Assembly: GCA_049513715.1 (NCBI GenBank)
Contig: JBEKVV010000002.1
Location: 192,001-256,000 of the forward strand
Length of the DNA: 64,000 nt
DNA from: Candidatus Bathyarchaeia archaeon
Lineage (GTDB): Archaea; Thermoproteota; Bathyarchaeia; 40CM-2-53-6
Direction of reading: 5' to 3'
In this document: piece after piece, positions 3,038-41,873 of the stretch
Layout: every line of letters starts with the position of its first letter
Numbering within the stretch: the stretch's first letter is position 1
Notes under the pieces: generated by a model
The model's input: only the letters and a program-made list of their open reading frames with translations
What the model was told of the DNA's origin: nothing
Database searches by the model: none
Program-made: the position numbers and the translations under genes

Positions 3038-3178
3038 TGGCGCCGCCGGCAGGGTTCGAACCTGCGACCAACGGGTCACTGTGTTCTGGCAGCTTAACAG
3101 CTTCAGCCCCCACTGGCTTGGTAGGGTCCGCTGCTCTAACCACTGAGCTGGCGTCTACGCGGTTGCGTATACGGCGGC
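3038..3178 (-). tRNA. tRNA-Asn(GUU) with three BHB introns (8/9: 3170-3150; 30/31: 3127-3102; 37/38: 3094-3077)
   Basis: Removing 21+26+18 nt gives the 76-nt cloverleaf GCCGCCG-TA-GCTC-AGTGGTTA-GAGC-A-GCGGG-CTGTTAA-CCCGT-TGGTC-GCAGG-TTCGAAC-CCTGC-CGGCGGC-G-CCA, with encoded CCA and G73. Each insert forms a BHB-type motif. Confidence 0.92.
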
Positions 3179-3220
3179 TCGTGCCTTTCGGCGGCGTTCG
3201 AGCCATTTCCCTTTCAGCGC

Positions 3221-38767: not shown

Positions 38768-38775
38768 TTAAAATA
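38768..38775 (+). promoter_or_regulatory. Putative TATA box of tRNA-Glu
   Basis: TTAAAATA starting 32 nt upstream of the leader acceptor copy at 38800, flanked by the 7-bp inverted repeat GCACACG/CGTGTGC. Confidence 0.55.
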
Positions 38776-38816
38776 GCGTGTGCTCTCGATAGTCGGATTG
38801 CTCCGGGCAACTGTGG

Positions 38817-38967
38817 GCTCCGGTAGAAGCGTTCTGCTACCGAATATAGCCCGGTCAAGGCGATTAGTCGCCGAGAGTATGCTGGCCTCTCGAGCATGAC
38901 GGGGAGAGTCAGCGACGCGGGTTCAAAAGCGAGTGCTCAACCGCTGAAAATCCCGCCCGGAGCACCA
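38817..38967 (+). tRNA. tRNA-Glu(CUC) with four BHB introns (10/11: 38827-38844; 20b/21: 38858-38875; 37/38: 38893-38906; 59/60: 38928-38950)
   Basis: Removing 18+18+14+23 nt gives the 78-nt GCTCCGG-TA-GTAT-AGCCCGGTCAA-GTAT-G-CTGGC-CTCTCGA-GTCAG-CGAC-GCGGG-TTCAAAT-CCCGC-CCGGAGC-A-CCA, a typical archaeal tRNA-Glu with encoded CCA. Confidence 0.9.
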
Positions 38968-41765: not shown

Positions 41766-41873
41766 GGGCCCGTAGCTCAGCTAGGTTAGAGCGACAGAAA
41801 ACCAAAGGTCGAAGCTCATAAGAAGAACGGAGAAACCTGCTGGTCGAGGGTTCGAATCCCTCCGGGCCCACCA
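41766..41873 (+). tRNA. tRNA with CAU anticodon, most likely Ile2, with two BHB introns (30/31: 41798-41813; 37/38: 41821-41834)
   Basis: Removing 16+14 nt gives the 78-nt GGGCCCG-TA-GCTC-AGCTAGGTTA-GAGC-G-ACAGG-CTCATAA-CCTGC-TGGTC-GAGGG-TTCGAAT-CCCTC-CGGGCCC-A-CCA. The GGGCCC acceptor is Ile-like rather than initiator or elongator Met. Confidence 0.88.

Follow-up and report, generated by a model that had tools for sequence, protein, structure and literature searches.

The window analysed here, the whole stretch of 64,000 nt from a Bathyarchaeia genome, carries on its plus strand a tRNA-Glu(CUC) gene in which five exons alternate with four introns. The gene lies 100 nt beyond the end of a 542-aa ORF, which we take to be related to thermosome subunits, and it is preceded by a promoter-like element and by a leader with a second copy of the gene's own acceptor 5′ strand. 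The features are as follows:

38768–38775, plus strand: TATA-box-like element (own weight scan), kept in orthologs, starting 32 nt upstream of the copy in the leader and 49 nt upstream of G1
38800–38807, plus strand: leader copy of the acceptor 5′ strand, 8 nt, complementary to nt 65–72 (38956–38963), at the inferred transcript start
38815–38816, plus strand: leader G-2 and G-1, which with G1–U3 can pair with A14–C17a in a predicted fold, closing the 10/11 motif on its exon side
38817–38967, plus strand: tRNA-Glu(CUC) gene, 151 nt
38817–38826, plus strand: exon 1 (nt 1–10), in which nt 5–8 are a central helix strand of the first splice motif
38827–38844, plus strand: intron 1 at 10/11, 18 nt, HBh′ type, missing in 10 of 29 parsed orthologs
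38845–38857, plus strand: exon 2 (nt 11–20b)
38858–38875, plus strand: intron 2 at 20b/21, 18 nt, HBh′ type, missing in 3 of 29 parsed orthologs
38876–38892, plus strand: exon 3 (nt 21–37), with the anticodon CUC at 38889–38891
38893–38906, plus strand: intron 3 at the canonical 37/38 site, 14 nt, hBH type, missing in 1 of 29 (L022)
38907–38927, plus strand: exon 4 (nt 38–59)
38928–38950, plus strand: intron 4 at 59/60, 23 nt, full hBHBh′, missing in 4 of 29 (L016–L019)
38951–38967, plus strand: exon 5 (nt 60–76), including the encoded CCA

A first-pass annotation, made from the letters of the window, had read inserts of BHB-type geometry at 10/11, 20b/21, 37/38 and 59/60 that make up 73 of the 151 nt, and its central helices, bulges and intron share all agree with our own parse. 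Each of the four central helices has 4 of 4 pairs and is flanked by at least one helix (h or h′), the inner helices of inserts 1–4 having 4, 3, 1 and 3 bp and the outer ones 0, 1, 7 and 5 bp. In the shuffled gene a 4-bp central helix arises at 1.7% of random cut pairs, which gives a chance of about 8e-8 for all four if they are independent. Spliced in silico, the gene yields a 78-nt product that ARAGORN without its intron mode recognizes as a Glu(CTC) cloverleaf, and the unspliced gene is called by neither ARAGORN nor Rfam, as had been foreseen for standard finders. Across the 16 combinations of insert removal ARAGORN made calls in four, and a Glu(CTC) starting at G1 appeared only with all four inserts removed (two of the other three calls had a wrong anticodon and one was a Glu starting inside the 10/11 insert).

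In each of the four DNA runs that could be its source, the stretch is found unbroken and identical in the contigs, and no joined, intron-less form of the gene was found there. A split or permuted tRNA is ruled out by the five exons, which are colinear within 151 nt, and by the absence of a second exon set in the genome. Recent transposition of the introns, as in the Thermoproteales model, was also considered and rejected: they are not near-identical to other introns of the genome, the best normalized global alignments against the other parsed introns (those of Trp aside) scoring 0.17–0.29. A check for another Glu(CUC) gene, suggested with the first-pass annotation, turned up none in the genome, where three intron-free look-alikes of the CUC arm lack a tRNA body.

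Orthologs were sought by BLAST in 61 related genomes; the 30 best loci were kept, a choice that favours look-alikes, and 29 of them parse, each to a 78-nt Glu(CTC) (L021 is incomplete). All four introns are present in 14 of the 29, this gene included, and among these is a locus from another family (L027); the others lack the 59/60 intron (four loci), the 10/11 intron (eight), those at 20b/21 and 37/38 (one) or those at 10/11 and 20b/21 (two), such that each of the four introns is cleanly missing, at its exact site, in some relative. In 13 four-intron orthologs, 97.7% of alignment cells are paired (slid controls, 35–48%), and changes on both sides of a helix occur at five pairs, all within intron helices (shuffles, 1.6±0.7; 1/500). 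In contigs of co-occurring relatives the variation likewise falls almost entirely in the introns, which hold 13 of 14 substitution sites and all seven indels. We regard this locus as confirmed to be a real multi-intron tRNA-Glu(CUC) gene.

Splicing machinery and tRNA set of the host

The genome encodes two EndA genes, RtcB and RNase P RNA. One EndA aligns to that of Aeropyrum pernix (E 3e-41), and its Y122, H130, K161 and K38 (query numbering) fall on the published Y125, H133, K164 and loop lysine K44, the last being the residue of a specific loop that A. pernix EndA needs for broad specificity. The second EndA is divergent and probably a structural subunit, and the pair would form an (αβ)2 heterotetramer. 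Relatives of the catalytic EndA are titled Bathyarchaeia or Bathyarchaeota in 15 of 17 cases (two titles are bacterial), and the host is of Bathyarchaeia type, not one of the Thermoproteales with which the gene had earlier been compared.

A BHB-aware parser located 41 tRNA loci in the genome, with 5.6 Mb searched over both strands, and none in 2.8 Mb (half that length) of Markov-3 random sequence, and targeted parses for Asp, Cys and Trp brought the set to 44 genes. Introns interrupt 43 of them: seven genes have one, 21 have two, nine have three, five have four and Trp has five, a total of at least 101 introns, or 2.3 per gene. This total is a lower bound, as inspection by eye suggests one extra intron in each of Lys(TTT), Arg(CCT) and Cys. 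Rfam models exceeded their cut-off at just 18 places in the genome, against the 44 genes parsed. Genes for His and Gln(CUG) were not found in the genome, and may be unassembled, split or more interrupted still.

Several members of this set deserve mention in their own right. Other four-intron genes are Leu(CAG), initiator Met, Pro(CGG), Pro(GGG) and probably Lys(TTT). The five-intron gene is tRNA-Trp(CCA) (L050/L056; G000:C1, minus strand, about 372190–372420), which also has a leader copy; its introns lie at 10/11, 28/29, 37/38, 45/46 and 59/60, and all eight orthologs parsed, of 28, have five. A second segment of the Trp leader could pair with nt 26–28 and the next intron, and the 59-nt intron at 37/38 contains what we take to be box C/D-like words. 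Within the window, a tRNA-Asn(GTT) gene (3038–3178, minus strand) has introns at 8/9, 30/31 and 37/38 and a leader copy of its own acceptor strand at 3195–3189, and a tRNA with a CAT anticodon (41766–41873, plus strand), whose body is presumably Ile2-like, has introns at 30/31 and 37/38 and is found by Rfam but missed by ARAGORN without intron mode. Elsewhere, introns at 8/9 in Leu(CAG), 3/4 in Gly(CCC) and 8/9 in Cys come with leader copies (L052, L053 and L054, with G000:C1 172880, C1 168876, C2 373349 and C4 148380), and tRNA-Asp(GTC) (L055; G000:C4 144552–144657) has a single 30-nt intron with a clean motif at 68/69, within the 3′ strand of the acceptor stem, and no leader copy. Position 33, usually U, seems to be C in Arg(TCT) and, by eye, in Arg(CCT) (G000:C3 44785, minus strand; C4 128581, plus strand). 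The genome is strewn with isolated tRNA ends, many of them 3′ and some 5′, as at integration sites. In other families, the Glu(TTC) genes L101, L102, L107 and L108 parse with inserts at further odd sites (34/35 and 53/54), and with less certain ones in the 3′ strand of the acceptor stem.

The leader copy and its link to early introns

The most unusual part of the gene is the leader copy, which the earlier sequence-only reading did not register. Its distance from the TATA-box-like element is 30–32 nt in 20 of 20 sequences, while the distance from that element to G1 varies from 42 to 49 nt. With archaeal promoter spacing a transcript would start at the copy, given how far it lies from the TATA box, and this together with the fixed distance suggests that the transcript would begin with the copy. 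(A scan for sigma-70 promoters, a model not suited to archaea, gave nothing.) Nine bases at the copy are invariant in 13 of 13 orthologs, whose flanking leader is variable. The helix that the copy would form shows no covariation in this 13-sequence alignment because it never varies there; changes of C to T within the copy keep G·U pairs, yet C to T is also the commonest mutation.

Within the genome, leader copies follow the position of the first intron. Six tRNAs (Gly, Asn, Leu, Cys, Glu and Trp) have an intron at or before 10/11, that is, at 3/4, 8/9 or 10/11, and they hold the six strongest duplexes between leader and 3′ strand among the 44, with energies of −14.4 to −18.5 kcal/mol and no overlap with the other 38, which are at −11.8 or weaker. 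In five of the six the best duplex is with the tRNA's own tail. The copy accordingly goes with introns at these three sites in six tRNA species, and with no later intron.

Related genomes give the same picture, with the limit that they are kin and not independent and that the counts do not polarize gains and losses. Among the Glu(CTC) orthologs the copy is present in 19 of 19 that have the 10/11 intron and in one of 10 that lack it. The 28 Trp orthologs, of which eight were fully parsed and the remainder scored for their 10/11 state only, divide into 22 with the intron, all at −14.4 kcal/mol or stronger, and six without, which range from −5.8 to −15.6; three of these six retain 7–9 paired bases. 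A class-wide search of 301 genomes with a pattern that ignored the leader found Glu 10/11 inserts at 44 places in 39 genomes and 14 families (reversed control, 0), and 42 of the 43 distinct inserts have the full 4-bp central helix. A preset 7-mer, with wobble allowed, occurs upstream of 29 of these 43 genes versus eight of 332 intron-free 5′ ends. GCTCCG, read by eye and picked as a pattern after the 7-mer result was known, occurs upstream of 41 versus two of 332. Of the two genes without the 6-mer, one (L115) is at a contig end and the other (L111) has the insert that lacks a full central helix. Taken as anatomy and correlation, the copy is strongly linked with early introns.

Copies or remnants also persist at Glu loci that have no intron (L020, L157 and L159–L164). 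The last six, all of one family, are intron-free 5′ ends with an altered copy like that of their intron-bearing kin L113 and L114; the altered copy could reflect either erosion once the intron was lost or a presence older than the intron.

A possible helper role in splicing

The 10/11 motif needs nt 5–8, which are normally held by the acceptor stem, and a copy that occupied the opposite strand would free them and let the motif form. Folding with ViennaRNA agrees with such a role: the 10/11 central helix has a probability of 0.97–0.98 when the leader is included; in its absence the probability is no higher than 0.001, and the cost rises from 0.0 to 4.4 kcal/mol. Replacing the copy in the folding model made the helix costlier in all 19 Glu orthologs (median, from 0.0 to 3.7 kcal/mol). 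In the tRNA-Trp orthologs replacing the copy alone had a median cost of just 1.0 kcal/mol, since leader bases outside the copy can contribute. The central helices of the remaining three introns have probabilities of at most 0.05 and cost 1.9–7.2 kcal/mol, and the 20b/21, 37/38 and 59/60 motifs are not lowest-energy folds; their formation probably takes place on the enzyme or one after another.

On these grounds we propose the following course for the transcript. Transcription would begin at the copy, which by the folding models would pair with nt 65–72; the freed nt 5–8 are predicted to pair with the 10/11 intron, and G-2 to U3 with nt 14–17a. An (αβ)2-type EndA would then cut the inserts of BHB geometry, the copy helix would tether the 10-nt first exon, and RtcB would ligate. 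Finally the true strand may displace its identical copy by strand exchange, with RNase P trimming at G1, a cut that would make the step one-way. The other three introns would need no helper. In the ViennaRNA model the copy is still bound to the 3′ strand once splicing is complete (P 1.0), and its release is therefore not explained by secondary structure and would call for tertiary folding or the irreversible RNase P cut. We think it likely that the four inserts are cut out by the genome's (αβ)2-type endonuclease and that the copy frees nt 5–8 for splicing at 10/11, and we hold the helper role itself with a similar, reasonable degree of confidence.

An alternative is that the gene is real and the copy mainly delays RNase P, keeping 5′ trimming from locking the acceptor stem ahead of splicing, with the release of nt 5–8 as a side effect. 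In Methanopyrus kandleri, so far as the accessible text describes it, the ends are trimmed before intron removal; a copy at the inferred transcript start would resemble a mature 5′ end; and at 3/4 and 8/9 introns, read by eye, leader bases join the motif. We nevertheless consider delay as the main role unlikely, since the 10/11 helix fails even with a short unpaired leader (P ≤0.001) and delay alone would not expose the motif, although the two roles are not mutually exclusive.

The copy might also be a neutral leftover of a duplication that accompanied intron insertion or the integration of an element at the 5′ end of the gene, but we doubt it. Its place relative to the TATA box is that of a leaderless G1, remnants linger in some intron-free genes, and partial tRNA ends are scattered through the genome, all as a relic might leave them, but a relic fits poorly with nine invariant bases amid variable flanks, with the restriction of copies to tRNAs with early introns in six species, and with the recurrence of copy and Glu intron in 14 families.

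Were the locus a decayed or non-spliced pseudogene, GAG, which is common in the long ORFs (14,539 codons, against 16,626 of GAA), would be read by tRNA-Glu(UUC). A Glu(TTC) gene is indeed present, and three of the four motifs are not favoured folds. We find a pseudogene very improbable because the introns are absent at exact sites in relatives, changes in the intron helices are two-sided and compensatory, variation falls almost entirely in introns while the exons are kept, and no second Glu(CUC) gene was found; the promoter and the CCA are also intact. From these sequence comparisons the four-intron gene is very probably functional.

A reading in which exon 1 is really the upstream copy, followed by a fifth intron of 17 nt, is barely credible: the copy does match nt 1–7 and sits at the inferred start, but by hand check no cut after positions 1–7 yields a paired central helix, the sole palindromic register would put G8–C9 in place of U8, the BHB-aware parser favours four introns, and Trp copies drift from the true acceptor.

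The helper role that we prefer may extend beyond Glu. We lean, with somewhat less assurance than for this gene alone, towards a general cis device in Bathyarchaeia, fitted to at least six tRNA species, in which an acceptor-strand copy at the transcript start would misfold the precursor, allowing splicing in or next to the acceptor stem, reversing the order of trimming then splicing, and opening 8/9 and 10/11 sites that would otherwise be closed to BHB introns.

Relation to known multi-intron tRNAs

Four introns in one tRNA had seemed to the first-pass annotation to go beyond what was known, and in reviews up to 2014 three are given as the maximum in the accessible text (PMC4033280, PMC3239211, PMC3218864, PMC4390854). 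That claim does not hold, since a preprint on Asgard archaea gives up to five per gene (Goswami et al., 2026). As far as its text was available, nearly all tRNA genes in that lineage are interrupted, with 2.20 insertions per gene, and acceptor-stem and junction inserts are grouped as ‘other’; an earlier paper counts 228 introns in three Asgard genomes in the part available (PMC11291895). The intron load is like that seen here (2.3 per gene, with one five-intron gene), as are the inserts in the D-arm that standard tools miss, but the lineage is another one, and the available text of the preprint contains neither ‘Bathyarchae’ nor ‘leader’.

The 10/11 site, which had likewise been thought to lie beyond what is known, fared differently. 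It does not appear in the texts searched, a set that does not extend to the Asgard intron tables, and its novelty in print is not established. The open-ended list of intron positions in the accessible text of PMC4090602 is without it, and neither a 10/11 intron, a leader helper nor a survey of tRNA introns in Bathyarchaeia was found in the accessible literature searched (including PMC3728597, PMC7714728 and PMC3695527), with most subscription papers outside its scope.

Other systems resemble the present one in part, judged from the portions of the sources at hand. Thermoproteales such as Pyrobaculum islandicum, in tRNA-Pro(UGG), and P. calidifontis, in tRNA-Glu(UUC), share BHB and relaxed HBh′/hBH introns at 20/21, 37/38 and 59/60 and an (αβ)2 EndA, and have a known acceptor-stem intron at 3/4, but they have at most three introns and no leader copy is described in those portions. 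In the split and permuted tRNAs of Nanoarchaeum, Caldivirga and Thermofilum a leader or trailer RNA likewise pairs with a partner, building the BHB; there, as the accessible accounts have it, EndA cuts the leader, which forms part of the motif, whereas here the copy lies outside the motif and would occupy the competing strand in cis. The multi-intron tRNAs of Cyanidioschyzon merolae also have D-stem introns, whose ordered removal, followed by RT-PCR, tracks motif stability, but this is a eukaryote with three introns at most, and a leader helper is not mentioned in the accessible text. The gene described here belongs to a known class of tRNA and comes from a lineage whose intron richness is not yet described in the literature searched, with the 10/11 site and a well-correlated candidate leader helper as its distinguishing features.

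The tRNA sets of Bathyarchaeia are under-called, and look as intron-rich as those of the Asgard record holders. BHB introns persist only where the exon permits the motif, and sites adjacent to the acceptor are blocked by the strongest helix of the tRNA. If the mechanism proposed here is true, the 10/11 intron would reverse the trim-before-splice order of M. kandleri, and a spare strand encoded in the leader would offer an easy escape from that limit, as well as a role for tRNA leaders as helpers of folding that was not found in the literature searched.
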